Assembly (NCBI GenBank): GCA_052147975.1
Contig: JBKQJL010000083.1
Location: 15,892 to 79,891 of the forward strand
Source: Myxococcaceae bacterium
GTDB taxonomy: Bacteria > Myxococcota > Myxococcia > Myxococcales > Myxococcaceae
Direction of reading: 5' to 3'
Length of the DNA: 64,000 nucleotides
The notes under the pieces were generated by a model that searched no databases, was not told the DNA's origin, and was given only the letters and a program-made list of their open reading frames with translations. A program made the translations under genes and the position numbers. Of the stretch, positions 7,672 through 62,600 are shown one piece after another. Numbering within the stretch: position 1 is the first letter of the stretch; each line of letters starts with the position of its first letter.

Positions 7672-8589
7672 ATGCGCACCTTTCTCGTGGTGAATCCCCG
7701 AAGTGGCAACGGAGACACGGGGCGGCGCTGGCCGGACATTCTGGCGGCGGCGTGCGGCAGCATGGGGGAGGTGGGCTCGGCCTTCACCGAGTCCCCCCTA
7801 CACGCTGCCCAGCTGACGGCGCGGGCGCTCGCCGACGGCTACCAATGCATTGTCGCGGTGGGTGGAGACGGCACCCTCAACGAGGTGGTGAATGGCTTCT
7901 TCCAGGTGCCGGGGGGGCCTCCCACGGGGGCCACGCTGGCCGTCATTCCCCGGGGGACAGGGGGAGACTTCCGCCGCACCTTTGGCTGGTCGACCAGTCT
8001 GCGCAGCGCCTGTGCGCGCATCTGCGCCGGGCAGACACGCCCTTTGGACGTCGGGCGGGTGGCCTTCTTGGACGCGCAAGGGCGCGCCCAGCAGCGCTAC
8101 TTCGTCAATGTCGTCTCCTTCGGGGTGAGCGGCCAGGTGGACAAGGAAGTCAACCAGGCCAGCAAAGGCTTGGGAGGCAAAGCCACCTTCTTCCTCGCCT
8201 CGGTGAAAGCCATGTGGCGCTTTCGCGACCAGCCCATTCGGCTGCGCGCCGACGGAGGGAAGTGGGAGGCGTTGAGCATCACCACCGTGGCGGTGGCCAA
8301 CTGTCAGTACTTCGGCGGCGGCATGCGCGTCGCGCCCACCGCCGACCCCAGCGACGGCCACTTCGACGTCACGGTGTGGAGCGGCTACACGCTGAAGGAC
8401 TTCGCCCTGCAATCGCGGCGCATTTACGATGGCACCCACGTGCAGCTGGCCGGCACTCGGACGTTTCGGGCCAGCCTGCTCGAGGCCGAAAGCGCCGAGG
8501 AGGTGCTGCTGGACGTGGACGGCGAGCAGCCCGGACGTCTCCCGGTGCGGGTGGAGCTCCTCCCCTCGGCGCTGCGGCTGCAGGGGTAG
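7672..8589 (+). CDS. Diacylglycerol/lipid kinase family protein (YegS/BmrU-like)
   Basis: 305-aa ORF with a DAGK catalytic-domain signature (FLVVNPRSGNG, VAVGGDGTLNEVVNG). Confidence 0.85.
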   Translation: MRTFLVVNPRSGNGDTGRRWPDILAAACGSMGEVGSAFTESPLHAAQLTARALADGYQCIVAVGGDGTLNEVVNGFFQVPGGPPTGATLAVIPRGTGGDFRRTFGWSTSLRSACARICAGQTRPLDVGRVAFLDAQGRAQQRYFVNVVSFGVSGQVDKEVNQASKGLGGKATFFLASVKAMWRFRDQPIRLRADGGKWEALSITTVAVANCQYFGGGMRVAPTADPSDGHFDVTVWSGYTLKDFALQSRRIYDGTHVQLAGTRTFRASLLEAESAEEVLLDVDGEQPGRLPVRVELLPSALRLQG

Positions 8590-9105
8590 GGGCGGGCGTC
8601 TCTGTCGGGCCGTTACCCACTTTCGCCGACGCGGAGCGTCACGAAGAAGTCACAAAAGCTAAGAATTTCAGTTATTTGTGGCCAAACTGTGCTGGCCGAG
8701 CTTCCGCCGCGACTGTACTGAATGGGCAGCCTCGCGCAGGAGAGCCAGCGTCGAATGGAAAGCGGCGGCTGGCCCAAGGGACTGCCCCATCTCGGGGTGG
8801 CGCTCCTGGTGTTCGAGGCCAATGGCCATGCAGAGCATTCTCGACGAGACGCAGGACATAGAGCTTCTTCTGGCCACGGCGCTCACCGCCTGTGGCTACG
8901 TGATTGGGGCGGCGGTGTTTTTGGCCGCCCTGCTGTAGACGCCCCACCCCGCGCTTCCTCTCGCCCGCCCGGGTGCGCTTACCCCCCTTAGAAAGCGGGA
9001 GGGAGCCGTCCGCGGAGGGGGGTGGGAGGGGCGGCCCGGGGCCCTGGGCGAAGCTGTCGCCTGGAGGCGGGCACGTGGGAGGGGAGGGCGCCACTGTCCC
9101 TCGCC

Positions 9106-44137: not shown

Positions 44138-45523
44138 CTACAAGGCTCGGCGTTTCACCGTGCGGGAATAGCTCAGTGGTAGAGCATCGCCTTGCCAAGG
44201 CGAGGGTCGAGGGTTCAAATCCCTTTTCCCGCTCCTCCAAGCCTCGGTAACGCCGGGGCTTTTTTCTTGGTCCGCAGCTCCTGACTCCGCTTTCGCCGTT
44301 CCCGTCAACATCCTGTCAACAACGCGCTGCGGTACAAGGTGCCCAACCGCGATGGGCATGCTGTTCGCCGCCGCGCGCAGCCTCGTCTTCTCCACGTGCG
44401 TGTAGACCTCCGCCGTCAGCCTGGGGTCGCTGTGGCGAAGAATCTTCTGAGCTTCAGCGAGTGGCACGCCGGCGACGTTGAGCAGCGACGCCGTCGAGTG
44501 TCGCAAGTCGTGCCAGCGGACTGGCCGAACCTGAGCCTTCGGCCAGAGAAGAATTCCATGCGTCGGACACCGGCGAGGCGCGCGATCCGGATGCGCTTCC
44601 TCGTGCCGACACGGTTGACCCTTTCGCCCCCGACAGCGGTGCATGTAACCGAGGACAATGTCGGCACGGGCCAGGGCGCGCCGGAGGACGTGCTGCAGCT
44701 TGATGTCCACCTTCATCATCTTCCCATCAGTGCCTGGAAAGACCAGGTCACTCGGGGAACCGTCCATTGCCGCCTGGAGAAACGGCACGAGCGCTTCCGG
44801 AATCGGCAAGACGTCGCTGTGGCCGCCTTTCGTCGTCGTCCGCCCCCAGCTCGCCTCCACCGCTAGTTCTCGCCGCTCGAGGTCGACAGACGTCTTTCGT
44901 AAGGCAGCGAGTTCACCGCGACGAAGCCCGAGGTACACGGCGCAGGCGAAGAGAGAGCGCCACCGGGGGTCCAAGGCTGCCATCACCGGCTCGACCTCCT
45001 CGGCGCGGAGGTAGTGGTGGGAGGCCCGCTTCGACTCCCTCCGGTGGTCCGTGTCCTGCGCCGGATTCTTTCCCGTCCAGCGGCCAGCTTTTCGCGCTCG
45101 ATTGAAGACCGTGATGAGGGCGCGTCGGAGCTTGTTGACGGTGGCTGGAGAGAGGTCTGAGAGCTTCGCCTGCAAGAAGGCCTCGATTCTCCCGGTGGTT
45201 ACCTGTGAGAGACGGAGCTCACCAAGGTTGCCTCCGACGAGATGCTTACGGGCGGCCGCTCCGGTCTTCCCTGCCCATGCATGCTGCGAGACGTACGTGT
45301 TGAGCCACCACTCGACAAGTTCGCCGAGCGTCTCGTTGCGTGGCGCCGCCGTCTCTCCGTTGCGAATACGTTCCGCTTCTTGCTCGGCTTGGGCGGCGAG
45401 CCGTTTCGCTTGCAGCTTTGACGTCCCCGGCTCTGTCGGGCGCTGAACCTGTTTCCCGGTGTGCCCCAAGAAGCTGATGTACCAGCGCCCCGGACGTTCG
45501 GGCCTCTCGAAGACGTACGCCAT
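44138..45523 (-). CDS. Tyrosine-type site-specific integrase; its 3' end reads antisense through tRNA-Gly (hybrid junction ORF)
   Basis: Catalytic residues are present: R in YLGLRRGEL, HxxR in WHDLRHS, and H..Y in LRHSDPRLTAEVYTHV (Tyr at aa 374). Amino acids 431-454 (SGKRDLNPRPSPWQGDALPLSYSR) are the antisense translation of the tRNA. The stop lies 22 nt beyond the tRNA 5' end. Confidence 0.9.
   Translation of the reverse strand: MAYVFERPERPGRWYISFLGHTGKQVQRPTEPGTSKLQAKRLAAQAEQEAERIRNGETAAPRNETLGELVEWWLNTYVSQHAWAGKTGAAARKHLVGGNLGELRLSQVTTGRIEAFLQAKLSDLSPATVNKLRRALITVFNRARKAGRWTGKNPAQDTDHRRESKRASHHYLRAEEVEPVMAALDPRWRSLFACAVYLGLRRGELAALRKTSVDLERRELAVEASWGRTTTKGGHSDVLPIPEALVPFLQAAMDGSPSDLVFPGTDGKMMKVDIKLQHVLRRALARADIVLGYMHRCRGRKGQPCRHEEAHPDRAPRRCPTHGILLWPKAQVRPVRWHDLRHSTASLLNVAGVPLAEAQKILRHSDPRLTAEVYTHVEKTRLRAAANSMPIAVGHLVPQRVVDRMLTGTAKAESGAADQEKSPGVTEAWRSGKRDLNPRPSPWQGDALPLSYSRTVKRRAL
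44162..44233 (+). tRNA. tRNA-Gly (anticodon GCC)
   Basis: Hand-folded cloverleaf. The acceptor stem GCGGGAA pairs with TTCCCGC. The D-arm is GCTC-AGTGGTA-GAGC. The anticodon arm is TCGCC-TTGCCAA-GGCGA, with GCC at positions 34-36. The T-arm is GAGGG-TTCAAAT-CCCTT, the discriminator is T, and CCA is not encoded. Confidence 0.92.
44241..44266 (+). terminator. Intrinsic terminator-like hairpin downstream of tRNA-Gly
   Basis: GCCTCGG-TAACG-CCGGGGC forms a 7-bp stem with one G-T wobble. It is followed directly by TTTTTTC. Confidence 0.6.
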
Positions 45524-45915: not shown

Positions 45916-46827
45916 TCAAAGCAGGTTCATGTCGACCGGGAGCCCCGCGTCCTTCATCTCCCTCGCCAGTTTCAGTGGCCACGCTCCGTCATAGGGAGTG
46001 TAGACAACACCCAGGATGTCAGAGGGCAGGTCGACCACTCCGCGATGGAGCACGAAGACTTTTGAGCGACCAATTCGCCCGTAGAAGTATCCCAGCTCAA
46101 GGACGACGTTCTGTCGCGCTCTCTGCTTCGGTGTTGCGATCTTGTCCTTTGCCTCTCCCAAGTCGTCGTCCGTGAGAAGAACCACGGCAAACGCCACTTC
46201 CGCCGCGTGCTGCTCTAGCTTCTCGAAAATGAGCCTGCCCCGATTCGGCATCTCGTGAAGGATGATCGGCTCAAGCTTCAGCCGCTCGAGGAGCCGAGCA
46301 ACTTCCTGCTTCAGAGCGTTGTCGTGCCCATGGACGATAAACACCTTCCTCGACGCCAAGGCAGACGACGCGGGCGGCGTTCCTGTCTCGGGCTGAGTAG
46401 CGGGCGGTTCTCCGTAGAGATCTAGTTGCTCCAGGACACTCCGAAGGTTGTTGAGTTTTTGCTCCAGGCTCTTGCGAAGCGTGTCGTGCTGCAGGATGTC
46501 AGTGATCCCGCTCCCTGGCCCTCCGAACTCGTAATCGCCTGCATCGAAGACAACTGAAGCCGGTCCTGCGGTGTCGAAGGAGAATGCAGCGTTGGTATCG
46601 GTGAAGAGCTGCCGCAAAAGCTCCAAGTTCCTCGCGGACCAGCGGTCGTACTCGGCCTTGACGTTGTTCCGGGATTCGGGCGTGCTCGATTGACGCGCAC
46701 GGTTTAGTAGAGCCGCTCCGGAATCGACGCCAGCGGTCAGCTGTTTGCGCGCTTCTTCTCGTGAGCGGCGGAGCCTCGTAGGCTCCTCGTTTGCCACGGT
46801 GTCTCCTTTGCGCCCGCGTTTCGCCAT
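45916..46827 (-). CDS. TIR-like (CAP12/PycTIR-type, COG4271-like) nucleotide-binding domain protein with an uncharacterised helical N-terminal domain
   Basis: The C-terminal ~150 aa carries KVFIVHGHD, EPIILHE, FAVVLLTDDD and ARQNVVLELGYFYGRIGRSKVFVL. I recognise these as the hallmark strands of the bacterial TIR-like effector domain. The N-terminal ~135 aa is helical and has no domain I can name. Confidence 0.7.
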   Translation of the reverse strand: MAKRGRKGDTVANEEPTRLRRSREEARKQLTAGVDSGAALLNRARQSSTPESRNNVKAEYDRWSARNLELLRQLFTDTNAAFSFDTAGPASVVFDAGDYEFGGPGSGITDILQHDTLRKSLEQKLNNLRSVLEQLDLYGEPPATQPETGTPPASSALASRKVFIVHGHDNALKQEVARLLERLKLEPIILHEMPNRGRLIFEKLEQHAAEVAFAVVLLTDDDLGEAKDKIATPKQRARQNVVLELGYFYGRIGRSKVFVLHRGVVDLPSDILGVVYTPYDGAWPLKLAREMKDAGLPVDMNLL

Positions 46828-46905: not shown

Positions 46906-47946
46906 CTAGTCGTCCGGAAATAGCTCGGAGGCGATGCCAATCAGGTCTCGGTCGTAGAGCATCGTGCAGCGCTGGTGCAGGTCGCCGTCGTGAGTAATCA
47001 GGGTTCCGCAACGGGCGCCGGCGCCTACGATGTTCGCGTCCATCCAGTCATTGCGGTCGGTTTTGAGAGCGCCGATTTCAGGGTCCAGCTTCTTTCTCTC
47101 CAGCATCGGAACCGTCTCCAACACGTCCCGAAGCGTTCCGAGTACGGCCCAAGTCCAGCACGACAGATAGTCCTGGTAGTGCGCCTCCGCGTAGGCCACC
47201 TCAGCTTCAACTCGGCGAGGGTTCCAGCCGTAGTCTTTGCAGACAGCCCACAGCATTGCTCGAGCTGCTATTAGTGCGTGCGGCGCCCGGAAGTCGGCAA
47301 GCAAAGCCCGGCCTTCCGCGAGCAGTTTGGGGTCCTTCGCACGATTCTCCTGCCACTTAGCCGACATGCGTTCCATCGCCGGCCGGTGCCGCCTTAGGAA
47401 TTCGTTGTACTGGTCGAGAGCAGCCTGCATAACTGGCGCCCCGTCGAGGCTTCCGGTTCGAGCGACAAGCAGCAGTTCGGAGGACAAGCTGTCGAGTGGC
47501 CACGTGTCCATTGTCCGACGCCGCTCCTTAAGCTCTCGACGGTGTGCGTTCGCAACCAGATCCAGCACGTGCAGCCTCTCCCGAACCTCCGCATCGATGT
47601 GCAACAAGGTCGACACGACAGCTCCAAGTCTTCCGTCCGAAGGCGTGCGAAGGAGCTCGTTCAACGTGTCGACCGCTACCCAGCAGTTGCCCTTCACCTC
47701 GATGAGCTTGTTAATTCTTCGGATTAGGCGCCGTCGGGTGGGGGCGTCGTCCTTCACGAAGCTGATGACGGAAGTGTCGAGGAGAACGTCGGATTTCAGC
47801 GTGATCGTGGCGATAGACGGCAGATGAGGGCTGTCGTAGCCGGGCAGCTTGGTGCCTTCGGTGATGGGAACCGTCGAAAGCACGATCACCCGGTCCTTAA
47901 TCATTCCGGCCGGCTTCGGAGGCTTCGCTGAGCGCTTTGCAGCCAC
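46906..47946 (-). CDS. PIN-like nuclease-fold protein with a ~190-aa helical insertion (hypothetical)
   Basis: The acidic PIN-type motifs are split. DVLLDTSVISF and VAVDTLNELL lie near the N-terminus. DWMDANIVGAGARCGTLITHDGDL lies near the C-terminus. The gene is 78 nt upstream of, and co-oriented with, the TIR-like gene. The fold call rests on motifs only. Confidence 0.5.
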   Translation of the reverse strand: MAAKRSAKPPKPAGMIKDRVIVLSTVPITEGTKLPGYDSPHLPSIATITLKSDVLLDTSVISFVKDDAPTRRRLIRRINKLIEVKGNCWVAVDTLNELLRTPSDGRLGAVVSTLLHIDAEVRERLHVLDLVANAHRRELKERRRTMDTWPLDSLSSELLLVARTGSLDGAPVMQAALDQYNEFLRRHRPAMERMSAKWQENRAKDPKLLAEGRALLADFRAPHALIAARAMLWAVCKDYGWNPRRVEAEVAYAEAHYQDYLSCWTWAVLGTLRDVLETVPMLERKKLDPEIGALKTDRNDWMDANIVGAGARCGTLITHDGDLHQRCTMLYDRDLIGIASELFPDD

Positions 47947-48229: not shown

Positions 48230-48796
48230 ATGGCGAAGTCAGCGCAAGGTTTAAGCAGCGCGGCAAAGAGGGTTCCCCGCATCTACGTGGCCTCACTGTC
48301 GGACTACAACGCCGGCCGGCTTCATGGCGCCTGGCTGGAGGCGACGGACATTCAACAGGTACGCGCGGGAGTCACCGCCATGTTGAAGGCCTCCCCCGGC
48401 GGCGCCGCTGAGGAGTACGCCATCCACGACTTCGAGGGCTTCAGCCGCTACCTGCCGTCCGAGTTCGCGGACCTCGAGCTAGTCTGCGCCATCGGCGCCG
48501 CCATTGTGGAGCACGGCACAGTCTTCACAGCCTACCTCGAGCACGTCGCCTTCCCGACGGACGCGGAGCTGGTCCCCGAGCTGGTGGCAGGCTTCACCGA
48601 GTGCTACCACGGCGCCTACGAAAGCGTCGAGGCCTGGGCCGAGCAATACCTCGAAGACACGGGCCTTCTACAGCAAGTGCCTGAGTCGCTCCGCGGATAC
48701 CTCGACTTGGAGAGCTGGGCCGACGACGCCGAGCTCAACGGCGACATCTTCTCTGTCGAGTTCGAGGACGAACTCCACATGTTCTTAGAACGCTAG
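48230..48796 (+). CDS. ardA: Antirestriction protein ArdA
   Basis: Strong resemblance to the Tn916 Orf18-type ArdA. Compare RIYVASLSDYNAGRLHGAW, EEYAIHDFEGF and QYLEDTGLLQQVPESLRGYLDLESWADDAELNGDIF. The protein is highly acidic. Confidence 0.85.
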   Translation: MAKSAQGLSSAAKRVPRIYVASLSDYNAGRLHGAWLEATDIQQVRAGVTAMLKASPGGAAEEYAIHDFEGFSRYLPSEFADLELVCAIGAAIVEHGTVFTAYLEHVAFPTDAELVPELVAGFTECYHGAYESVEAWAEQYLEDTGLLQQVPESLRGYLDLESWADDAELNGDIFSVEFEDELHMFLER

Positions 48797-49746: not shown

Positions 49747-49932
49747 CGCTAAAATGCGTGAGCTGTGAGGAATCGATTTTGCCAGGCAGCAGCGTTTTCT
49801 TCATTGAGTTAGGGGCTCATGTGGCAAACTGTTCAGGCTGGTCCGTCTATTCACTCTCGGGGAGCTCGGCCAGCCGAACAGTCATGAGTAGCTCAGGCGC
49901 GGCGTGGGTGTACCAGCGCGCCATTGGCCGCC

Positions 49933-51450
49933 ATGGCAACTGACGCTGACATCGAAGAGGCCGTCGATGGGATTCAGGAACAATGGACCAATCCCATCTC
50001 AAGGAATGCAGTATTCGGAAACATTATAAAGTCCTTGGGCATTTCAAACGTTAGAGGCCAGAATTGTTCAATCGAATTCCAGTGGCCTGTTTGCGCAATT
50101 GCCGGAGTGAATGGGACGGGGAAGACCACCATCCTGCAACTTTGCTCGACGGCATATGCCCCGGACGGCAAGCGGCTTTTTCGCCTTGGGAACTGGATCC
50201 GTAATGCCATGGAGGGCGAAACACCTCCAGTGAAGGACCCAGCAAAGCTCATCTTCAACTTCTGGAACGACACCCCTACTCTTACAATACCCTATATTCC
50301 GGCGCAGACCCGGTGGGGCTACCCGCGACGTAATAACCCTGCACGACACGTCGAATTCATCGGCATCAGCGAGTTTGCCCCACGTATTGAACAGCGAGAT
50401 CGCGCTCACGTTTTTCGGAAACAACTAAGAGTGAAGGCGACTCGGGACATTGACGCCCGAGAAGTCGAGAGTATCTCGAGGATTCTCGGCTCCCCATATT
50501 CTGGTGGTCGAGTCAATACGGTCTCAACCTCGAAAGGAGAATGGGAGTTTGACCTCCCGCAGCTTCAGCGGGGCGGATATGTTTACAGCGAACCGCACAT
50601 GGGTGCCGGTGAGCAGAAAGTTGTCCGGCTAGTCGCAAGGCTGGAGGCCCTTCCGAGAAATTCACTCGTCTTACTCGAGGAACCGGAAACAACGCTCCAC
50701 CCTGACGCTCAACGGGGTCTCGCTTGGTACCTAATGGCACTCGCAAAGAGGCGCGGCCACCAAATACTTATTGCGACCCATTCGACGGAAATCTTTCAAG
50801 CGCTGCCTTCCGAAGGCAGGATCCTACTTGTTCGAGATGGAGCGGGCATCCGAGCTCTTCCGCGAGCACCGTACTTTCGAGCAGCGCGAGAACTGGCCGC
50901 ATCGATGCGGAGCAATAAAGATTTGCTTCTCGTCGAGGACGAGGTAGCTCGCCAATTCCTTCTGGAAATACTTCGACGTAACAATCGCGCGCTTCTTACG
51001 AACTCAGAAGTCGTTCCATTGGGGTCCGCGGATGATGTGCGCCGCAATGTGGAGGCGCTACGTGAACAACGGGTACGAGCAGTCGGGGTGAGGGACGCCG
51101 ACGTTGGTGAGCAGTTCGAAAAGGGGCTCTTATCGTTGCCCGGCGACATGGCGCCGGAAGTGCTACTTCTCGACCCTGCGAACATTGCCCGCGCAAGTGG
51201 GCACATTGCCGATCTGCAGATGGCCTTCGAACGTGCTGAGGTCCGAGGTCAGGGCCTTCAAGGTACGAAGAAGGCCAAAAAGGTATTCAATGCGCTGTGC
51301 GACGAGGTCGGGATGCCGGCAGCGCTGCTGTCCGACCGGCTGACCCTAGCTTGGCTGGAGGAAAACGCCGAAGGAGCCGCCGCACTGGCGGAAAGGATTG
51401 AGCAGTGTCTGGATGCGGTCCACAACCGAGGACCGGCTATGTTGCGCTAG
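49933..51450 (+). CDS. ABC/AAA-type ATPase fused to a TOPRIM/DUF4435-like domain (OLD-family / PARIS AriA-AriB-like)
   Basis: Walker A (GVNGTGKTT), ABC-signature-like (GAGEQK), Walker B (LVLLEEPETTLHP) and H-loop (IATHS) are present. The C-terminal region has an acidic E...DxD pattern (LLLVEDEVARQF, GVRDADVG, APEVLLLDP). ATG 49933 is preferred over the track's TTG 49924. Confidence 0.7.
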   Translation: MATDADIEEAVDGIQEQWTNPISRNAVFGNIIKSLGISNVRGQNCSIEFQWPVCAIAGVNGTGKTTILQLCSTAYAPDGKRLFRLGNWIRNAMEGETPPVKDPAKLIFNFWNDTPTLTIPYIPAQTRWGYPRRNNPARHVEFIGISEFAPRIEQRDRAHVFRKQLRVKATRDIDAREVESISRILGSPYSGGRVNTVSTSKGEWEFDLPQLQRGGYVYSEPHMGAGEQKVVRLVARLEALPRNSLVLLEEPETTLHPDAQRGLAWYLMALAKRRGHQILIATHSTEIFQALPSEGRILLVRDGAGIRALPRAPYFRAARELAASMRSNKDLLLVEDEVARQFLLEILRRNNRALLTNSEVVPLGSADDVRRNVEALREQRVRAVGVRDADVGEQFEKGLLSLPGDMAPEVLLLDPANIARASGHIADLQMAFERAEVRGQGLQGTKKAKKVFNALCDEVGMPAALLSDRLTLAWLEENAEGAAALAERIEQCLDAVHNRGPAMLR

Positions 51451-51573: not shown

Positions 51574-52524
51574 ATGCCTGTGCTACCCGAAGCCCCCGAT
51601 CCAGCCGCACCACCGCCAACTTGGCGCATTGCGCTCGAACTCATCGAGCCCAATCCCCATCAGCCAAGACGCGAGTTCGATGCAGCCCCTCTTTCAGAGC
51701 TCGTTGAAAGCATCCGGGAGCATGGGTTACTGCAGCCGGTCTCGGTCAGGCGGATTCCGGGAGGCAGGTACCAACTCATTGCTGGGCACCGTCGGCTAGA
51801 GGCTTACCGTCGGCTGCTAGCCGAGGCCCGAGGCAAGGAGGGTAGCGAGCGTTTCGAGACCATCCCCGCCCACGAGAAGTTTGATGTTACCGACGAAGAG
51901 ATGGCGCTCTTCGCCTTGGTCGAGAACCTTCAGCGCGACGATCTTTCGCCCCTGGACGCAGCTTTGGGTCTCTCGAGATTCCAGGTGGCGAATGAGCTTT
52001 CGACCGAGGCGCTGGCGCAGCGCACCGGCCTCGAGGTCGATCGGGTGAAGCGCCTGCTGCGGCTCGCGCGGGCGCCCAAGGTTGTCCAGGACGCATGCCA
52101 CGAGGGCGTTCTCATCGAGCAGGTAGATGAGCAGGGGACAGTGAAGCTTCTTGCCTCCGGCAACGCCAAACGCGAGCGAGCCCGCCTGGACCTCATGGCG
52201 GCGCTCGAGTTCGCGAGGGCCCATTCGAGCATCGCCAAAACGGCGCCGAAGAAGGCCGACGAGCGGACCGCAAAGGCTATCGAGCGGGCGCTGTCCGAAC
52301 GCTGGACCCTGAGGCGCGTACAGACTTTTTGCCGAGGTGTCGTTTCGGGTTCGCAGCTCGATGGGAGTACCGGGGAAGGAGCTGTCGCAGCCGCGCGCGT
52401 AGCGCTGTTCACCGACGGAGCCGAGCTACGCATCCGTCGAAGTCAGCTCGCGAAGGCTGCACCCGGACAGCGAAGCGCCTTGGTCGAAGTACTGAGGGCG
52501 CTCTTAGCAGAGCTCACGGCGTGA
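51574..52524 (+). CDS. ParB/Spo0J-like partition or KorB-like DNA-binding protein
   Basis: The ParB N-domain is present (IELIEPNPHQPRREFDAAPLSELVESIREHGLLQPVSVR ... LIAGHRRLEAYRRL ... LVENLQRDDLSPLD). It is followed by an HTH (LSTEALAQRTGLEVDRVKRLLRLARAP). Confidence 0.85.
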   Translation: MPVLPEAPDPAAPPPTWRIALELIEPNPHQPRREFDAAPLSELVESIREHGLLQPVSVRRIPGGRYQLIAGHRRLEAYRRLLAEARGKEGSERFETIPAHEKFDVTDEEMALFALVENLQRDDLSPLDAALGLSRFQVANELSTEALAQRTGLEVDRVKRLLRLARAPKVVQDACHEGVLIEQVDEQGTVKLLASGNAKRERARLDLMAALEFARAHSSIAKTAPKKADERTAKAIERALSERWTLRRVQTFCRGVVSGSQLDGSTGEGAVAAARVALFTDGAELRIRRSQLAKAAPGQRSALVEVLRALLAELTA

Positions 52525-52731
52525 AGGCGTCCAAAAACTCGGGGCAGCGCTGCTCCACGTGCCGAACGCAGTGCATCGGGCCCTGCCGAATGGCTTGCCG
52601 AGCCCGTTTCGATGCTTCGGCAGTCACTTCGCCTGGCATCGCGTTCGGCAGACACAGGCGGACAAGCCCTCGGAATCCGCGGCGCCCGCCCCGCCGCCGA
52701 AAGGCGGTACTCGAAGCGACGAAGTGCAGTC

Positions 52732-52790
52732 GCACGAACCAACCACTCCCTCCCAACGACAAAAGACGGGATGGAGTGGTTGGTTCGTGC
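52732..52790. repeat. Perfect 18-bp inverted repeat (hairpin) followed by a T-rich tract
   Basis: GCACGAACCAACCACTCC (52732-52749) and GGAGTGGTTGGTTCGTGC (52773-52790) are exact reverse complements separated by 23 nt. They are followed by TTCTTTAGTTTTTCC. Confidence 0.85.
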
Positions 52791-52956
52791 TTCTTTAGTT
52801 TTTCCTCCCGATTTTCGGCGGCGGGGCGGGGAATTCAGGGTCTTTCAAAGACCATGTAGGAGTCAGGTAGCAATGAAGGACATGACATCGAAGAGTTACG
52901 AGGCCGCGGCCTTGCGTCGAGACCGAGCTGTCAGCGTGGTGCAGAGGTGGTGACCG

Positions 52957-54102
52957 ATGAGTGAGGAGATTGAGAGGGGGGAAGTGTGGACGAGCGAGTA
53001 CGCGGTCACGGCGAAGCGCGGTGGAGGAGTGAAGCTGACGGATAGAGACAGAGATGTCCTCGGGCTCCTGGTGCTGGCGAGGTACCTGACAGCAGCCCAG
53101 GTGTACCGCCTGGCGTTTGCTGGCAAGCACCCCTCGCTGGCGTACCGTCGTCTGCTGCGGCTCTCGCGGGAAGACGGCCAACCAGCCTTTGTCCGCCAGC
53201 GCTTCTTCCGCGACTACGACGGCAATCGCCGCGCCGTTTGGGCGCCAACGCCATACGCTCTGAAGGCGGCGCTGTCGCGCTCAGCTTCGCTCCCCGAGTT
53301 GCCAAAGCACGACGTGGGCGCGCAGTTCCTGGAGCACCTGCTCCAGCTTAACGAATTGCTGGTCGCCCTCTGGCAAGGCGGGCCGCGGTGTCCACGGGCG
53401 ACGCACCCGGCGTTCCGGTGGGTCCCGTCGGACAGGGTGCGTCTCGTCTGGGGGGAATGGGAGATGCGAGAGGGTCGTCGGCAACAGCGTGTCATCCAGC
53501 CGGATGCTGTCCTTGAAGTCCCGCGGCAGAAGCGTCGGTACTTTCTCGAGTGCGAGATGGGAACGCACACCATTGTGCCGAACCAAGGTAGCTCGCCCGG
53601 AGCTACCGTCGCCAAGGCGGACCGCTACCAGCGGTTTCTCGGCGACGCCTCCGGCCTGGACGGCCGCCGCACGCATTACGACACCCAGTACCCTGACGGG
53701 TTTGCGCCGGACGTTCTCTTCTTGGTGCTGAACCGGGGACGAGCGGACTCCGTCAACGCGGCGCTCGTCTCGTGGCGCAAGAAGACCGGGGCCCGGAGGC
53801 CAACGGCGATGCGGACCCTTACGTTCGAGGAAGCCACGGTGGAGCTACGCCAACTCGCTGGGCTTCCGGCACTTGCGCACGCAACCAGCGTCGAGCACGA
53901 GCGCGCCGGATGGGGAAAGGAGACCTACCTCGTTGCCGAGGACGTGGCGGTACTGCGTCAGTATGTCCAGGAGTCGGTCGGCTCTATCAAACGGGCGCGG
54001 GCCGTGTTCCGGCAGCTGGGGCGTCCAGACTTGCCCGAGTACCCCGTGAATTACGAGCGCGCGTATGCGCTGCTCGACCGCATCGCTCATGAGACGGGAT
54101 GA
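52957..54102 (+). CDS. Replication-relaxation family protein (Replic_Relax-like)
   Basis: The N-terminal winged-helix pattern LTDRDRDVLGLLVLARYLTAAQVYRLAFAGKHPSLAYRRLLRLSREDG matches my memory of PF13814-type proteins of conjugative or mobilizable elements. Only a moderate call. Confidence 0.6.
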   Translation: MSEEIERGEVWTSEYAVTAKRGGGVKLTDRDRDVLGLLVLARYLTAAQVYRLAFAGKHPSLAYRRLLRLSREDGQPAFVRQRFFRDYDGNRRAVWAPTPYALKAALSRSASLPELPKHDVGAQFLEHLLQLNELLVALWQGGPRCPRATHPAFRWVPSDRVRLVWGEWEMREGRRQQRVIQPDAVLEVPRQKRRYFLECEMGTHTIVPNQGSSPGATVAKADRYQRFLGDASGLDGRRTHYDTQYPDGFAPDVLFLVLNRGRADSVNAALVSWRKKTGARRPTAMRTLTFEEATVELRQLAGLPALAHATSVEHERAGWGKETYLVAEDVAVLRQYVQESVGSIKRARAVFRQLGRPDLPEYPVNYERAYALLDRIAHETG

Positions 54103-54235
54103 TGACGTCTGACTTGCCAAGCGGGGCAGGTTGGCCGGACGCTCCGTACTCCTGCCCCAGGCCATCTTCAGCACATACTCTTGCTTGGCCGACACCTGCG
54201 ATGTTCGACGGTTCTCGGCGAACGGATGAGACTGT

Positions 54236-54739
54236 TCAAGAGCTGTCCCCCCTTCCGCTCTCACGGGAAGCGACCCAGCAGTTGCGCCAGCGGACAACTT
54301 GCCATTTCCCGCTCTCTTTTTGCAGGTCCAGGTCACAACCCCGCTGCATGAAGAAGCCGATACTGACACTGGCTGCTGCTCCCACGACGATGGCCTGGTC
54401 AGCGATGAGGAGTCGCTGTCCCGGGGACCCGTCGCACTCGGCGCGATTCCCCGACACTCTGAAGGGACGGGCGCCGAGGGTCTCCAAGAGGCGCTTCGAC
54501 GGCGCTCCGTCATCCACTTGAAGGCATATTAGGCCAGTCATGTGTTTCGTCACCTCGTTGATGGCCGCCACGAGCACCAAATCGCGGTCAGAGTCGACGC
54601 TGCTCGTGGATGGGGCTGTAAGCGAAGCAGTCGCGCACCCGACGAGAAAGACCAGGCTAATCGCAACGAGCCGCGCGGTTTGCGTCTCCATGGGGAACCG
54701 GCTCGGGCGCGCGGCGCCCGAGCCGAATCGCGACGTCAC
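54236..54739 (-). CDS. Hypothetical lipoprotein
   Basis: It overlaps the stop of the upstream activator gene by 4 nt. The lipobox is LVFLVGCAT. The start may be the internal METQTARL (54691). Confidence 0.55.
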   Translation of the reverse strand: MTSRFGSGAARPSRFPMETQTARLVAISLVFLVGCATASLTAPSTSSVDSDRDLVLVAAINEVTKHMTGLICLQVDDGAPSKRLLETLGARPFRVSGNRAECDGSPGQRLLIADQAIVVGAAASVSIGFFMQRGCDLDLQKESGKWQVVRWRNCWVASRESGRGDSS

Positions 54740-56298
54740 AAAGACTCCCGTGACACCCCGAGCTCGGCCATTTTTCGTTTAAGGGTGTTGAGGGCGACGC
54801 CGAGAGCCCGCGCCGCGTGCGCCTTGTTGCCCTTTGTGGCGAGCAAGGCGGCCTGGACGTCGTCTCGGGTCAAGTCGCTGGGGCGCTTCCTCGTCTGGGT
54901 CTCTGACGCGCCAGCGGCGCCGCGGAACCCATCGGGCGTGCCGGCCTCAGGCGGACGGCTGAAGGCCGCCGCGCGGGCTTCGAGGTACTCCCGAAACTCG
55001 CTGACGCCGAGCACGAGCCGTCCTGCAGGGCCTCCCTCGAACAGCTTCTCGGCGTGGGCGCGCTCCACCACCGTGTGGACGGTGGCTTCCAGCTCCCGCA
55101 CCTCCCCGGGCCACGGCTGCTCGGCAAGGAATGCCAGCGCCTTCTCGGACACTTGGGCCTGCACGTGTTGAGGTCCAGTCGCCAGCGCGGAGAGGAAGTG
55201 CCCGACAAGCACGGGGACGTCCTCTTGGCGCTCCCGCAGGGAGGGGAGGTGGATAATTTCTCCCCGCGCCAGACGCTGGGCCAGGTCCGGCCGCAGTGGG
55301 GACTCCTGAAGCCGTTGCTTCGAGGCCGAGATGAGGCGAAATCTCGGCCGAGGCAGCCCTCTGGACGTCGGGGCCCCGAGCGGCACCAGGTCCTCGGTGC
55401 CCTCCAGGAGGTCCAGAAGGAAGACCTGGGCCTCTGTCACCAGGGACTCAACCTCGTCGAGGAAGAGTGTCCCTCCGTCGGCCTCGAAGAGACGTCCTAT
55501 TCGCTTCTCCGTCGCACCGGTGAACGCGCCCCGGAAGTGGCCGAGCAACTCGCTATGGAGATGCGTGCGGTCCGGCGGGAGGGCGCCGCAGTTGAGGTAC
55601 ACGAAGCGGCCCCTGGCCCCGCTGAGTTCGTGAATGAGGTGGGCAGCGTACATTTTCCCCGTGCCGGAGGAGCCCAGGAGGAAGACGGGCCTGTCCACAC
55701 GACTGGCCCGGCGGATTGCCTTCTCCAGCTCTCTTGCGGCAGCAGACTTCCACTCGCTCGCCGTTGGGGAAGCTGCGTGCGCGGATGGCATTTCGGCGAG
55801 AAACTCAAGGCGGTTGTCCGTTTCCCCAAAGTGAAGCGCCACGCCGGCTGCCACGCCCACCGGACCGCCGCGCGGCAGTTTCCTCGGAGGGCCCTCGCCG
55901 GAATGAAGGAAAGTCCCGTTGGCACTTTCGTTGTCGCGAAGGGCCCAGGCGGAAACCTCCGGCACGTAGAAGAGGAGGGCGTGCTGCCTGGAAACGGCCT
56001 CGTCCTCGAACCACACGTCCGCCTTCTCGGCGCGTCCAAGGGTGTATACGCGGCGGGTGTCGAGCGGAATGGCCACCGAGGGCCGGCCGTGGCGAAGAAT
56101 GCGAAGAGCCCTCGGGCAGGGTCCCTTGAGGAGCCATTTCTCCGGGGGCACGCGCAGTGCCCGCCCGGGTGAGTCATCGCCAGGGCCCGCCGTTGGGACG
56201 GCGTCCGGGGAGAGAGTGTCGTGGCCTTCCACACTGGGCATACACGGGCCTGCCGAGTCTGAGAATGCCAGGGACAATACCCCGGGGCCTCCGCCCAT
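54736..56298 (-). CDS. FHA-domain sigma-54-dependent transcriptional activator (bacterial enhancer-binding protein)
   Basis: FHA region (YTLGRAEKADVWFEDEAVSRQHALLFYV ... NESANGTFL). AAA+ sigma-54 interaction domain with Walker A (LLGSSGTGKMYAA), the GAFTGA loop and Walker B (GGTLFLDEVESL). Fis-type HTH at the C-terminus (GNKAHAARALGVALNTLKRKM). Confidence 0.88.
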   Translation of the reverse strand: MGGGPGVLSLAFSDSAGPCMPSVEGHDTLSPDAVPTAGPGDDSPGRALRVPPEKWLLKGPCPRALRILRHGRPSVAIPLDTRRVYTLGRAEKADVWFEDEAVSRQHALLFYVPEVSAWALRDNESANGTFLHSGEGPPRKLPRGGPVGVAAGVALHFGETDNRLEFLAEMPSAHAASPTASEWKSAAARELEKAIRRASRVDRPVFLLGSSGTGKMYAAHLIHELSGARGRFVYLNCGALPPDRTHLHSELLGHFRGAFTGATEKRIGRLFEADGGTLFLDEVESLVTEAQVFLLDLLEGTEDLVPLGAPTSRGLPRPRFRLISASKQRLQESPLRPDLAQRLARGEIIHLPSLRERQEDVPVLVGHFLSALATGPQHVQAQVSEKALAFLAEQPWPGEVRELEATVHTVVERAHAEKLFEGGPAGRLVLGVSEFREYLEARAAAFSRPPEAGTPDGFRGAAGASETQTRKRPSDLTRDDVQAALLATKGNKAHAARALGVALNTLKRKMAELGVSRESL

Positions 56299-56307
56299 GC
56301 GTCAAGA

Positions 56308-56344
56308 TTGCCTGTCAGAATTGCCAGTCAAAGCTGACTGGCAA
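56308..56344. promoter_or_regulatory. Triple TTGCCNGTCA motif (direct repeat plus a perfect 10-bp palindrome) in the divergent activator/coupling-protein intergenic region
   Basis: TTGCCTGTCA (56308-17), GAA, TTGCCAGTCA (56321-30), AAGC, TGACTGGCAA (56335-44). The last two copies are exact reverse complements of each other. Confidence 0.6.
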
Positions 56345-56470
56345 GGCCTACGCGGTGGCGGAGGCCCACCGGCGGGTGTCGGCGACGAGCGTTGGGGCGC
56401 GAGACGCTCTGGAAGCAGCGGAAAGCCGTGCCGGGGCGTGCCGTCACGGCGTTTGCAATGCCCACCAGGC

Positions 56471-58282
56471 ATGCAAACCACACCTGCTTCCCGTCTTGTC
56501 CCGCGTTTTCTGCTGCTACTCGCCGTTGTCGCGTTTTTCAGCCACGTCACCCTCAGCTACCAACTGCAGCTGGCGCGGGGCCCGCTTCGAGGTCGGCCCG
56601 TCGGACGGTTTTTGGAAACCTTCGCGGTGCTGGACCGGCTGGCGATGCGCTACCCCGAGGTCGCGCTGTCGGCTGCGGCCAGTGCCCTCTTTCTGCTGTT
56701 TATTCTCTACCGAGGCTGGGTTGTCCTCAGGAACAAGCGCTTCACCGCCAAGGCCACTGGCATGGCGGACGAGCTCGAGGGACGCCGCTTCCCGACCCAT
56801 ACCTTCCTGGCCCTCGAATACATGGTCAACCGCGGCGGTCGCACCTTCGTCGGCCTCACGCCCAGGCGGCGAGTCCTGCCGCCCTGGGGGCTTTCCTGGC
56901 GCCCCGTGTACCTCTCCCAGGAGGAGAGGAGCATGCACCGTCATGTACTGGGGAAGACGGGCTCCGGAAAGACTAGCGGCATTCTCTGGCCGGAAGTCCT
57001 GCAGGACGCCCTGGACGGGAAGGGCGTCCTCGTCATTGACGCCAAGGGGTCCGACGAGAATGCCAAGACAATGCGAAGCATTGCGCACATTTCCGGGCGC
57101 CCGAAGGACTTACGTCTCTTCGCGTTGCCTGCGTGGAACCGGCCGCAGCTCTTCTCCCACGCCTACAACCTCGTCCACGTGAAGCCACGGACGCCGGGCG
57201 ACGCAGGTGGGGACGTCATGGCGATGGCCGAGCGCGTCTTCTCAGTCTTCAACCTCGGGGACAACGCCTACTTCAACACCCAAGCCTACCTGGCCTTCGG
57301 CCGCATTTGCAGGGTGCTGCACGGCTTCGAGAGTTCCAACGGGTTTGGCCTGCCCTTTAACCTACGAGACGTCTCTGTCTGCTTGCGTGGGCTGTCCTCG
57401 CTCGACTCGGAATGGGGCGCGACATTCCAGCAGTGTCTCGCCCTTTCTACGGACCGCGAAGCGGTCGAGGAGCTGCGGGCTCAGGTCCTTTCGCTGGGGA
57501 GGGATGTAGGCCAGTGCCTTTCGGGCCTTCTAGGCGCAGTGGACAAGTTTCAATCGCCCCTCGTCAATGCCTATGAACCCGAGATTTTTTTCGAGGACGT
57601 CCTGGAAAGAAATCGGCTCGTCTACGTGCAGCTTCCGTCCAACCTCTTCAAGCTACAGGCGCCGGCCTTAGGGAAATGCATGCTGATGGACCTTCAGCAG
57701 GAGGCGTCGCTCCGGCAGGTATTCCGTGAAAGGCGGAACCAGCGGCCGTTCTCGGTATGCGTGGATGAATTCGGGACATTCGCAGACATTTCAATCATCG
57801 ACTCGCTGAATAAGCTGCGAGACGCGCACATTCAATTCACGCTGTCCCACCAGTCGATGGCGGACCTCGAAATTGTGTCGAAGGAGTTCGCCCAGGCGGT
57901 ATGGGACAACACGCGAACGAAGGACATTCTCGCGCAGGACAACCCGGAGCTCTGCGAGCGTATGGCGAAGAGCCTCGGGACAATGCCGCGCCTCGAGAAC
58001 ACGCTTCAGCAGGAGCGCAGCTTTCTGTCCGCCATCCTGCCTACGGGCTTGCTCTCGACGCGGGCGGTCGAGGCTTACCGACTCCACCCCAACCGGCTCA
58101 AGTCGCTAGCCTCGCGAGGGCAGGGGTACCTCTTCGCTTCGCGGCCCAAAGGAATGACGGCGTTGCCCATCGCCTACGGCAGCCTCGGGCAGCTCCCGGT
58201 TCCGTCGGCGCACTCGCTGCGCCGAATAGACCAAGCAACGGCACCGGGGCTGCGCCTGTACGAGCGCTTCGTGAGTTGTTGA
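56471..58282 (+). CDS. TraD/VirD4-like type IV coupling protein ATPase
   Basis: N-terminal TM helices (FLLLLAVVAFF, ALFLLFILY), Walker A (VLGKTGSGKTS) and VLVIDAKGS are present. The Walker B/TraG-D_C-like region is FSVCVDEFGTFAD ... IQFTLSHQSMADL. The start is set at ATG 56471 because the track ORF's upstream part overlaps the activator gene. Confidence 0.78.
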   Translation: MQTTPASRLVPRFLLLLAVVAFFSHVTLSYQLQLARGPLRGRPVGRFLETFAVLDRLAMRYPEVALSAAASALFLLFILYRGWVVLRNKRFTAKATGMADELEGRRFPTHTFLALEYMVNRGGRTFVGLTPRRRVLPPWGLSWRPVYLSQEERSMHRHVLGKTGSGKTSGILWPEVLQDALDGKGVLVIDAKGSDENAKTMRSIAHISGRPKDLRLFALPAWNRPQLFSHAYNLVHVKPRTPGDAGGDVMAMAERVFSVFNLGDNAYFNTQAYLAFGRICRVLHGFESSNGFGLPFNLRDVSVCLRGLSSLDSEWGATFQQCLALSTDREAVEELRAQVLSLGRDVGQCLSGLLGAVDKFQSPLVNAYEPEIFFEDVLERNRLVYVQLPSNLFKLQAPALGKCMLMDLQQEASLRQVFRERRNQRPFSVCVDEFGTFADISIIDSLNKLRDAHIQFTLSHQSMADLEIVSKEFAQAVWDNTRTKDILAQDNPELCERMAKSLGTMPRLENTLQQERSFLSAILPTGLLSTRAVEAYRLHPNRLKSLASRGQGYLFASRPKGMTALPIAYGSLGQLPVPSAHSLRRIDQATAPGLRLYERFVSC

Positions 58283-59607: not shown

Positions 59608-62600
59608 AGCGACTCTCTCGCGACTGGCGGGTATGGGCGGGTTTGGCCGGCCTCGGGCTTGTCGTCCTCCTTCTCGGACCGAAGCCCGCTGCTGCGCATT
59701 CGTTTCTTGGTAGCCTTCAAAGGCTCTTGCTTGCGCAGTCGAGCGACCCTCCCGAGACTGACACCCCGCAACCCACTCTCGTGTCGGTCGCTGGCCCTTC
59801 AAGCACTGGAGGGCTTCAGCTGTCAGACATGACTGGGCGGTATGAAAAGACGGACCTAGTTATTCAAAACAGCACGGGGCCGTTCGTCTTGAAGCGCACA
59901 TTCCGGACGAGTCTCGGTTACTGGAAGCAGCCCCAGGACTATTTCGTAACGCAGCCACAGTGGTGGACCAACCTTACCAGTAACGTCCAATTTATGAGCT
60001 ACGCGAATGATGGCATCACGTGCGTAGGCAGCCCACTAAATCCGGATTGCGTAAGGTCCCCCGACTACATTGTGACCGACCCAGACACGGGCTCCTTTCT
60101 CAATTACTACTCAAACGGAAACCCGCAAGTTCCCCAACAGGGGTTCCAGATTCCGGTGGATGCTGCCAACCAAGACAAGCTCTACGTCAACGCGAGCAAT
60201 CAAGATGGCGGCATCTCGAGTCTCATTCTTTTCACGCCTTCAAATCACTACTATTACGCGGAATGGGACGGTGCTCACACCTATTATCTCAGTAGAGTTG
60301 AAGATATAAAATATACGGCAGTAGACAGCGGCGTCACTGTAGCCAACATCAGTTATTCAAGCCCCGGAGTCATTTCGAGTGTAACAACGGCCGACGGCGT
60401 AGTCCTGGTCTTCAACAACACCGGAGGCAACCTCCAGTCTGTCTCAATCGATGGCGGCACCGTTGCTGCCTATACGTACAGTAATGGCCTCTTGAATACC
60501 GTAACGTACGATGATGGCACCGGGGAGGAATACGCTTACGGGACCAACAGCAACGGCTTCGCGGCTACAACACTGACTGGACGAAAAATAATTAGTTACG
60601 TCATAGACGCTGGCTCGGGTGCCGGCGAGGGTGCCGTCTCTTCGCAGACGACTGAGGAGACAACGCTTAGCCTCCTTGGTTGGTGGAACGACACGGCCTA
60701 CTCCTGTTCGGGGGGTTCGGGCACCGACTATTGCTACCAAAACACACTAAGCGATCCCGCTGTCACAGCGGGCGACGGCACATGGAGCGTCGCTGATTTG
60801 CAAACGGCTTACACCCTAAGTGTCCCTACCAACGCAAGCGTTGGCACGGGGCGTCAGACGTCCCTTGTGACTCGATTTTGTAGCGGTTCCTGCTCCGGCC
60901 TACTCGCGAGCTCGGGGCAAGCTTGGTGGTTTTGGCCCGGGGTAAACTACGCGTACGGCCAGAGCGCTGGTAACCAACCCTATGCGCAATCGAGCATGAG
61001 TGAGAATAATGCATTCACGGCCTACCCAAACGTTCGTTATGCTCCTTCGAGCGTCGTCCCTTCGGATGCGGGGTTCTTGCCGCCGCCCGAGTATCCGACC
61101 ATTCTTAGTGGCGCCACCAATGACGGTGGCGCGGGCGCGGTGTCCACGCAGACTCGAGCCTACGTCTATGGCGGAGTTGGCCAGCCCGTCCAGGGTTATG
61201 AGCAGATGGTGTCCACTGTTCAGAAACCCTCTCCACTGGGTGGGAACACGACGACGTACTACAACTGGGACACAACAAATAATCGCTTGAACTCAGTAGT
61301 GCGCGTCGGACAAACCGCTATCGATTCTTCAATGTCGCTCAGTCAGCAAAACATCGGCACAATTTACTCTTACGATAGCCGCGGTCGCGTTCTCTCAGTG
61401 CAGGGCCCTTGCTTCGTTGCAAGCGCCACCCAACCGACAGGATGCGCCTCCAGCAATTCTCCGGCGGTTGTTTACACTTATTACCCGCCGAGTGGAACTG
61501 GGTTTACGGCGAACCGTGCAAACACAAAAACCGTGTGCACAGGCCCCCTTTCTGGGACGCCACCCAACCAAACGTGTCCTGGTCTAACGACAACCTACAA
61601 GTCCTACGATGCGCGCGGCCATGTCACTGATTCGGTTGACGCCAATCTCGTTGAAACCATATCGACTTACTCAGGTAATTTATTACTTAGCACGAAGGTC
61701 ACGGCGACGACCGTAACTGATACAACCAACTATGGCTACGATGGGGACCAACTCCAATGGGTGCAGCACCCGACGGGGATGGTAGACTTCACGTGCTACC
61801 GAGTGCAAGCGCCGAATACGCCGCCAGGCAACTGCTCAACTACCTTGACGGCTTCCAAGTTCGTATATTGGAAAGCAAAATGTTCGGATACAGCCTGCAC
61901 TCACAGGACTGAAAGCGTCGCATACCAATATCTGCATGGGTACGTTTCGCAAGAGACCTACTATGATAGTATGGGCCAGGTCCGGCGGGTAGTGAGGCAT
62001 GACAGGGACCCCCGCAATCGGCCGACGTTCGATGCGGTCGGTGACCTCTCGGACACGACCGACACGACCTACTCGACGCGGGCAATGTTCGACAACGATG
62101 GAAATCAAATTAGCGTCGGCTTTCCGTACAATGCACCCTCGGTGTTTTGCAAGCAGGGCGGTGACACGACAACGTGTGCCGAGATGGTCCCTGACGGATT
62201 AGACCGACTCGCGAAGTTGACGGAGCCGTTGGTGAACGCTGGGGCTTCGCAGGAGGTGGTGGCTTACGACTCTCTCGGGCATGTGTCGAGCATCACCTAT
62301 AACTCTCAGAAAGTAATTTACGGCTACGACGATTTTGGAAATCTACTCACCGTCCAAGCGCCGTGGTTAGCCAACGGTGGCGTAGGTATTATTCGTTATG
62401 CGTACGACGCCCAGGGTCATATTGTCATCAAAGAGACGCCTGCGATGGCCGCGAGTGGAGCCGAGTTTCTGCAGTACGACTATGACGTCCTCGGGAGGCC
62501 ATTAGACCTGAAGCACTACCTGAGCGGCTATACGACTCTGTGGGCATTGGCGTACGACACTCCGGGGGGCGCGTGTCCTCCCCAAAGCTCAGGCGCCTTC

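Follow-up and report, generated by a model that had tools for sequence, protein, structure and literature searches.

The gene at positions 49933..51450 of a 64,000-nucleotide stretch of myxobacterial DNA lies within an island of low guanine-plus-cytosine (GC) content, and raises the question of whether it encodes an anti-phage defence system and, if so, which one. The stretch, hereafter the window, is taken from contig JBKQJL010000083.1 of the Myxococcaceae bacterium assembly GCA_052147975.1 (positions 15,892 to 79,891, forward strand). A preliminary description, made from the sequence without database searches, had proposed that this gene, hereafter the target gene, encodes an ABC-type ATPase joined to a TOPRIM/DUF4435-like nuclease in one polypeptide, as in the OLD, Gabija and PARIS proteins. 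As described below, the product is a divergent member of HEC-04, an already named and experimentally characterised type, and its architecture is not new. Within the OLD superfamily it belongs to the HEC-04/IbfA branch, and it is likely to work alone, as one protein, against phages or mobile elements, while being itself the cargo of a mobile element.

49933..51450, + strand: coding sequence of the HEC-04-type ABC ATPase-Toprim protein (open reading frame, homologue starts, PADLOC HEC-04 profile, identical NCBI protein)

Assignment of the target protein to HEC-04

Among the PADLOC profiles, HEC-04 (PDLC04149) gave the best and the only full-length match to the target protein (expectation value (E) 1.8e-45, 153.5 bits), aligning residues 25-493 with positions 20-489 of the 494 in the profile, while the second-best profile, NsnB, matched only in part with 62.8 bits. 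HEC-04 was also the best PADLOC match for relatives of 30-55% identity and for an IbfA-like plasmid protein. The profiles AriA, AriAB, GajA, PtuA, Old and ATPase-Toprim_I-B were confined to the conserved C-lobe of the ATPase. In the Pfam search of the target protein, AAA_21 and AAA_15, both ABC ATPase models, were the only matches above cut-off, with weak matches to SMC_N and AAA_23, and NCBIfam returned only sub-threshold matches of the ABC-transporter-like kind. The profile check that the preliminary description had recommended thus gave the expected ATPase families, only partial PARIS and Gabija matches, and the name HEC-04 for the type. The features that define HEC-04, as far as they could be checked, were all found in the target protein, which takes its place in the type as a distant member.

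The target gene is intact and encodes 505 amino acids followed by a stop codon. The enclosing open reading frame (ORF) starts with TTG (49924..51450, + strand, 508 amino acids), and an in-frame ATG lies at 49933. Since 34 homologues in the alignment begin with a methionine equivalent to this ATG, in the form 'MAT/MAS...', position 49933 is the likely start. An NCBI record of the identical protein bears the name 'MAG: ATP-dependent nuclease [Myxococcaceae bacterium]', and a second assembly record carries an identical copy of the gene with the same neighbours in the same order. A total of 146 homologues were collected, with E down to 1e-186 and an identity of 48-57% among the 120 listed, and a filter-free phmmer search of 1.84 billion cluster representatives gave 89 matches at E<=1e-30, a number that rose to 1098 when E was relaxed to <=1e-10. 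Those phmmer matches that are of full length mostly have 480-530 amino acids, and Thermus OLD has a similar length of 528. The suspicion that the protein might be a minimal variant, being too short for a fusion of two such domains, was therefore right only in that it is compact and divergent; to judge from its homologues, its length is the family norm (about 480-530 amino acids).

Comparison with the tested HEC-04 and IbfA proteins

HEC-04 was described as Hma-embedded candidate 4 by Payne et al. (2024, bioRxiv 10.1101/2024.01.29.577857). Payne et al. showed that it defends E. coli against T4 and T5, and its action extends to other coliphages. Its induction is toxic, and defence is lost both in the K62A mutant and in the E319A/D375A/D377A triple mutant (bioRxiv 10.1101/2024.01.29.577857). 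The tested protein was identified from Table S2 of Payne et al. as E. coli WP_081360980.1 / WP_044502283.1, and its full length was taken from E. coli strain 789. It is collinear with the target protein (target residues 24-494 against 21-490, 25% identity, E 7e-30; 28% over the first 400 residues), and each of the residues mutated in HEC-04 has its equivalent in the target, K64 corresponding to K62, E335 to E319, and D388/D390 to D375/D377. Both are single polypeptides of about 490-505 amino acids, stand-alone on mobile elements, and share an ABC ATPase in which Insert 1 is rich in beta strands, a C-terminal Toprim domain with a helical bundle, and the same catalytic residues. The target differs in its level of identity (25-28%), in its host phylum, Myxococcota, and in its location on an integrative element at tRNA-Gly, not in the hotspot of a P2 prophage or at an Hma locus. 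In addition, the subfamily of 48-57% identity to which the target belongs carries two invariant sequences within the insert, RWGYPRR (residues 127-133) and FAPRIE (residues 148-153).

A second tested relative is IbfA of the IncI1 plasmids R64 and pUA1135, which shows an abortive-like phenotype against P22-like phages: the burst size falls, the host cells lose viability without lysing, and phage DNA replication is unaffected (PMC12111858). IbfA resembles the target in joining an ATPase and a Toprim domain in one protein of about 520 amino acids, in having HEC-04 as its best PADLOC match, and in being cargo of conjugative elements; VED and DGD motifs are conserved in IbfA and in IbfA-like plasmid proteins such as WP_001586226.1. 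In contrast, the identity to the target is only 23-26%, the BLAST alignment is limited to residues 32-368, and both the insert and the C-terminal helices are unlike those of the target.

Conserved motifs

All the ATPase motifs quoted in the preliminary description were located in the translation, together with the acidic motifs of the C-terminal region.

50104..50130, + strand: Walker A (P-loop) GVNGTGKTT, residues 58-66 (motif mapping, homologue alignment)
50596..50619, + strand: ABC signature-like HMGAGEQK, residues 222-229 (G224, G226 and E227 invariant family-wide)
50665..50706, + strand: Walker B, catalytic Glu and D-loop LVLLEEPETTLHPD, residues 245-258 (E250 invariant)
50770..50784, + strand: H-loop (switch) IATHS, residues 280-284 (T282 and H283 invariant)
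50923..50943, + strand: Toprim strand 1 with acidic pair, LLLVEDE, residues 331-337 (E335 and D336 invariant)
51085..51108, + strand: Toprim DxD, GVRDADVG, residues 385-392 (D388 and D390 invariant)
51133..51159, + strand: SLPGDMAPE (P403 and E409 nearly invariant)
51154..51177, + strand: PEVLLLDP, third acidic motif of the preliminary description, residues 408-415 (only E409 conserved)

Conservation was determined in an alignment of 16 proteins with 23-55% identity, including the E. coli HEC-04 and the IbfA-like IncF plasmid protein. Fourteen residues are invariant in all 16: G58, N60, K64, G224, G226, E227, E250, L255, T282 and H283 in the ATPase, and E335, D336, D388 and D390 in the C-terminal domain. 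The signature-like motif was aligned with 'SGERQ' of AriA when the family profile was compared with PDB sequences. At the sequence level, all catalytic elements of an ABC ATPase are present and the acidic site of the Toprim domain is intact. The acidic pattern proposed earlier thus holds for LLLVEDE and GVRDADVG; of PEVLLLDP only E409 is conserved, and D414 is not. The segment SLPGDMAPE, which includes E409, could possibly provide a further ligand for metal or substrate.

Predicted structure

A full-length model was generated by AlphaFold2 from a 35-sequence alignment, with a pLDDT (predicted local distance difference test) score of 87.5, and residues 312-505 modelled alone reached a pLDDT of 93.8.

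49933..50862, + strand: ABC ATPase domain, residues 1-310, with an N-terminal helical lead at residues 4-28 (Pfam, AlphaFold, Foldseek)
50146..50595, + strand: insert at residues 72-221, which follows the Walker A helix and precedes the signature motif (model secondary structure)
50914..51447, + strand: C-terminal Toprim core and four-helix bundle, the latter at residues 415-497 (C-terminal-only model, Foldseek)

In the AlphaFold model, the insert consists mostly of beta strands with short helices, the longest at residues 175-185, and includes neither a coiled coil nor a helical dimerisation domain, in agreement with the earlier remark that a long coiled-coil insert is lacking (no helix exceeds about 11 residues). 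Insert 1 of HEC-04 extends the beta sheet (bioRxiv 10.1101/2024.01.29.577857), and the beta-rich insert of the target matches this account by Payne et al. The insert is a candidate for the sensor surface.

The C-terminal model shows the order beta-alpha-beta-alpha-beta-beta of a Toprim core, with strands at residues 330-334, 358-362, 383-387 and 399-401, followed by four helices. In the Foldseek search of the PDB with this domain, the matches were the C-terminal regions of Xanthomonas (Xcc) OLD (6njw/6njx/6njv), AriB (8ux9_A, fourth), Burkholderia (Bp) OLD (6nk8) and Thermus (Ts) OLD (6p74). The preliminary description had named a C-terminal region without the Toprim fold as the observation that would speak against it, and the model instead retrieves OLD C-terminal regions and AriB. 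With the whole model, Foldseek found retron and Septu PtuA, Thermus OLD 6p74 (second, E 1e-9) and GajA, with SMC and Rad50 heads ranking lower, at whole-chain template modelling (TM) scores as low as about 0.3-0.4. When the family profile was searched against PDB sequences, the best match was Thermus scotoductus OLD 6p74 (E 1.5e-12), with an alignment extending from the signature motif past 'VE(D/G)' as far as 'DxD', in which 'LLVEG' of Ts OLD pairs with LLLVEDE and 'VHDED' with GVRDADVG; AriA and GajA chains also turned up in the PDB searches. Together, the profile and Foldseek results bear out the proposed superfamily architecture, an N-terminal ABC ATPase fused to an OLD-type Toprim domain as in OLD, Gabija and PARIS. 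Pfam DUF4435 gave no match, either with the whole protein at E<=1 or with the C-terminal domain at E<=10, so that of the proposed TOPRIM/DUF4435 nuclease the Toprim part is upheld by the model and the 6p74 alignment and the DUF4435 part is not. No Pfam Toprim, OLD or DUF4435 model matched the C-terminal domain alone at E<=10 in the target, the E. coli HEC-04 or the IbfA-like protein, and with the Pfam models silent, it is structure prediction and the profile alignment that carry the assignment as Toprim.

Proposed mode of action

Based on these comparisons, we can also propose a mode of action. The N-terminal ABC ATPase would act as sensor and switch. The beta-rich, family-specific insert would read the trigger and, together with ATP binding or hydrolysis, license the C-terminal Toprim nuclease, in which E335/D336 and D388/D390 would form the metal site and E409 would lie close to it. 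Nucleic acid would then be cleaved, and phage production would be halted at the expense of host growth, that is, by abortive infection or growth arrest. This myxobacterial copy is presumably active; defence that depends on the Walker A lysine and the E/DxD residues, toxicity on induction and the abortive-like phenotype were established in relatives of 23-28% identity.

The known Class 1 OLD nucleases differ in substrate, P2 Old cutting tRNA and Vc OLD nicking DNA, and therefore do not predict the substrate of the target; PARIS AriB is also a tRNase, and TsOLD, Bp/Xcc OLD and GajA act on DNA. Phage DNA replication was unaffected by IbfA, which argues against bulk degradation of phage DNA. On this basis we slightly favour, with low confidence, tRNA or other RNA as the substrate, the kind cut by P2 OLD and AriB; nicking of DNA, the activity of Vc OLD, TsOLD and GajA, comes second.

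Evaluation of the assignment and of its alternatives

Several observations weigh against the assignment to a HEC-04/IbfA-type defence system. The experimentally tested relatives are only 23-28% identical to the target protein, and its score on the HEC-04 profile is one fifth of that of the HEC-04 seed protein (153.5 against 745.8 bits), so that its specificity, or even its activity, may differ from theirs. The C-terminal domain escapes every Pfam Toprim, OLD and DUF4435 model, and its Foldseek matches are modest (E 3.6e-3 to 0.17, TM about 0.4-0.46). In the promoter and terminator scan around the target gene, nothing above the shuffled expectation was detected on the + strand, and no clear ribosome-binding site or Shine-Dalgarno sequence was found upstream.

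In the nearest competing assignment, the target would belong with P2 Old and Thermus OLD among the canonical Class 1 OLD nucleases, as a homodimer or tetramer held together through a helical dimerisation domain of its ATPase, and would act as P2 Old does. Class 1 OLD is defined by context as a stand-alone gene for an ABC ATPase with a Toprim domain, and the target fits this definition as a single gene; in these nucleases, both active sites are required in vivo. Like P2 Old, Thermus scotoductus OLD (6P74) and Vibrio cholerae (Vc) OLD, it is a stand-alone ABC ATPase-Toprim protein in which the VE..DxD residues align. The rank of 6p74, first among PDB sequences and second in Foldseek, and the NCBI name 'ATP-dependent nuclease' agree with such an assignment. 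However, the match to 6p74 is limited to residues 31-69 and 230-391, the whole-protein TM is about 0.39, and the PADLOC Old profile (PDLC02358) gives a partial match of 38.7 bits at residues 240-295 against the full-length match of HEC-04. Moreover, the ATPase of TsOLD and of GajA carries an inserted dimerisation domain, whereas in the target the insert is predicted to be beta-rich, with no helical domain of this kind. We thus regard a canonical Class 1 OLD as unlikely. A fused PARIS (AriAB), triggered by anti-restriction DNA mimics, or a GajA-type Gabija protein working with a helicase is very improbable, and the target is not PARIS or Gabija by membership. Both systems resemble it in combining an ABC ATPase sensor with an OLD-type Toprim effector; AriB and GajA are among its structural neighbours, and the AriA, AriAB and GajA profiles match it with E from 1e-16 to 1e-10. 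These profile matches are, however, confined to the ATPase between signature and H-loop (residues about 215-310), the AriAB profile to residues 223-289 and the GajA profiles, at 33-40 bits, to residues about 244-310. PARIS normally consists of two proteins, AriA and AriB, which are sometimes fused, and its DUF4435 Toprim domain is seen by Pfam, unlike that of the target. GajA is about 580 amino acids long, carries a helical insert and needs GajB, whereas the survey of neighbouring ORFs with Pfam detected no GajB/UvrD-like helicase gene within several kb of the target gene. A more speculative point is that a PARIS-like trigger might be awkward or even self-defeating, since the element itself encodes ArdA.

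Two further explanations would remove the target from active defence altogether. As a maintenance or repair ATPase of the RecF/SbcC/RecN kind, or as a partner of ParB in partition or processing of the element DNA, it would account for the weak Pfam matches to SMC_N and AAA_23, for the SMC and Rad50 heads among the structural matches and for the ParB gene 123 bp downstream. Nevertheless, the SMC, RecF and Rad50 matches stay under the Pfam cut-offs and within the P-loop region, the target model is without a coiled coil, ParB is not conserved beside the homologues, and the patchy distribution, associated with mobile elements and defence islands, and the anti-phage phenotype demonstrated in relatives make this role highly unlikely. 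It is equally hard to credit that the gene came in recently from a donor of lower GC content and now persists, silent or decaying, as a passenger without function in its host. Its GC content and third-position GC content (GC3) of 0.561 and 0.579, far under those of its neighbours and of the host, agree with such a history, as do the lack of a recognisable promoter or Shine-Dalgarno sequence upstream and a split copy on a Burkholderia plasmid, which indicates that copies of this gene do decay; but the ORF is intact and of full length, all family-invariant residues are kept, and the copy in the second assembly record is identical, with the same neighbours.

Within the HEC-04/IbfA assignment, which we prefer, the subfamily of 48-57% identity, from betaproteobacteria and myxobacteria, might be functionally distinct from E. 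coli HEC-04, with a trigger of its own recognised through RWGYPRR/FAPRIE, a Toprim domain that cuts tRNA and not DNA, and, on this ArdA-bearing element, a role in conflict between elements. We regard this as unlikely; if it were true, the target would serve, for example, to exclude Mx-type phages or competing conjugative elements, and host defence in the classical sense would not be its role. As a HEC-04/IbfA-type protein, the target would bring this experimentally validated kind of defence, by a single ATPase-nuclease protein, into Myxococcota and onto a mobile element integrated at a tRNA gene, adding phylogenetic breadth without a new architecture, mechanism or principle. The residues invariant throughout the family are now defined (K64; G224/G226/E227; E250; T282/H283; E335/D336; D388/D390), and the divergent sequence should be useful for comparing what HEC-04/IbfA proteins sense and cut.

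Genomic context of the homologues

No neighbouring gene is conserved among the homologue loci examined, and the surroundings differ each time.

Ralstonia homologue: P4-like satellite/defence island, beside a ScoMcrA-type HNH protein, a RES-domain protein and CBASS
Burkholderia latens homologue: prophage
Homologue on JGI 3300043331 contig, the closest relative among the matches listed (57% identity): Eco57I-type methylase and SNF2 on one side, DEAD helicase and MZB/DUF1998 on the other
Two further homologues: solitary insertions among housekeeping genes
Tested E. coli HEC-04, 9001-10473 of the strain 789 chromosome stretch: P2-like prophage, between replication endonuclease gene A and portal Q

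The occurrence of the homologues as stand-alone genes without constant neighbours, spread over mobile elements and defence islands, is the distribution expected for a single-gene defence system. In a tblastn search of isolated phage genomes, a single partial match was obtained, in a Burkholderia phage, indicating that the subfamily of the target is not common in sequenced phages. The site between gene A and portal Q is presumably the P2 hotspot bearing old/tin; the old locus is also host to other defence systems. A conserved HNH partner was considered, as HNH genes lie beside the Ralstonia and Burkholderia copies, and was rejected because they are absent at the other loci. A parallel with IbfA as a gene of the plasmid leading region was likewise dropped, the IncI/IncF loci showing vapBC, insertion sequence (IS) elements and an S-4TM effector, not ardA/psiB/ssb.

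Two of the homologue loci deserve separate mention. The copy on the Burkholderia contaminans plasmid NZ_CP090639.1, 55% identical, is annotated as two abutting coding sequences (8001-8498 and 8498-9487), and is probably frameshifted and decaying. The JGI 3300043331 locus, with its 1664-amino-acid Eco57I-type methylase, is one that we take to be DISARM-like from the composition of DISARM; MazE/PIN-type toxin-antitoxin genes are embedded in it together with the homologue, so that defence genes are nested there in another defence system.

The mobile element carrying the target gene

The target gene is located within a low-GC island that begins at a tRNA-Gly gene.

44162..44235, + strand: tRNA-Gly(GCC), at which the element is integrated and where the low-GC island has its left end (tRNA call, GC shift)
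44138..45523, - strand: tyrosine integrase (Pfam Phage_integrase)
45916-46827, - strand: CAP12/Pycsar-type TIR protein, 303 amino acids (Pfam E 3e-39; PADLOC PDC-S35 E 7e-71)
46906-47946, - strand: ORF of 346 amino acids in the same orientation as the TIR gene and 79 bp upstream (no Pfam or PADLOC match)
48230-48796, + strand: ArdA anti-restriction gene, two genes upstream of the target gene (Pfam E 4e-33)
51574-52524: ParB, 123 bp downstream of the target gene (Pfam)
52957-54102: Replic_Relax (Pfam)
54736-56298, opposite strand: sigma-54 activator with FHA domain
about 56480-58282: TraD/TrwB-like coupling protein

Rightward of the tRNA-Gly gene, the GC content drops from 0.706, the value of the flanking chromosome, to 0.617. 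The integrase, followed in the island by an HTH_17 excisionase-like gene, has its best phage match in Int of Myxococcus phage Mx9 (36.6% identity, E 3e-32), and its ORF runs antisense through the entire tRNA-Gly gene before reaching its stop codon. The attP of Mx8 and of Mx9 is located within int itself, in its coding sequence, and tRNA-Gly is the gene into which Mx9 integrates; the C-terminus of the integrase, as it stands here, may thus be the post-integration form. With the transfer and maintenance module at 51574-58282, the island has genes typical of an integrative element, which is probably conjugative or mobilisable. A second tRNA-Gly 3' end or direct repeats marking attR were not found in the window, and the element thus probably runs past base 64000.

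The GC content of the target gene (0.561) is the lowest of the island, and its GC3 (0.579) compares with 0.70-0.84 in the other island genes. The low GC3 points to horizontal acquisition, and the gene looks as if it had entered the element recently, from a donor of lower GC content. Farther to the right, about 4.2 kb (~59800-64000; GC 0.55-0.59) is poor in ORFs, the longest on either strand having no more than 137 amino acids; no Rfam family reached its gathering score there, and blastn against the plasmid collection gave no match.

At the integrase end of the island, the TIR gene, assigned to the single-gene candidate PDC-S35, is likely to be a second defence gene. The adjacent 346-amino-acid ORF, of which the ends look PIN-like by eye (DVLLDTSVI ... 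TLITHDGDL), may encode a partner of the TIR protein or a separate toxin. The ArdA gene is separated from the target gene by a gene for a DUF6438-like protein. Proteins of the ArdA family are DNA mimics, and a single element thus carries counter-defence, in the form of ArdA, together with defence cargo.

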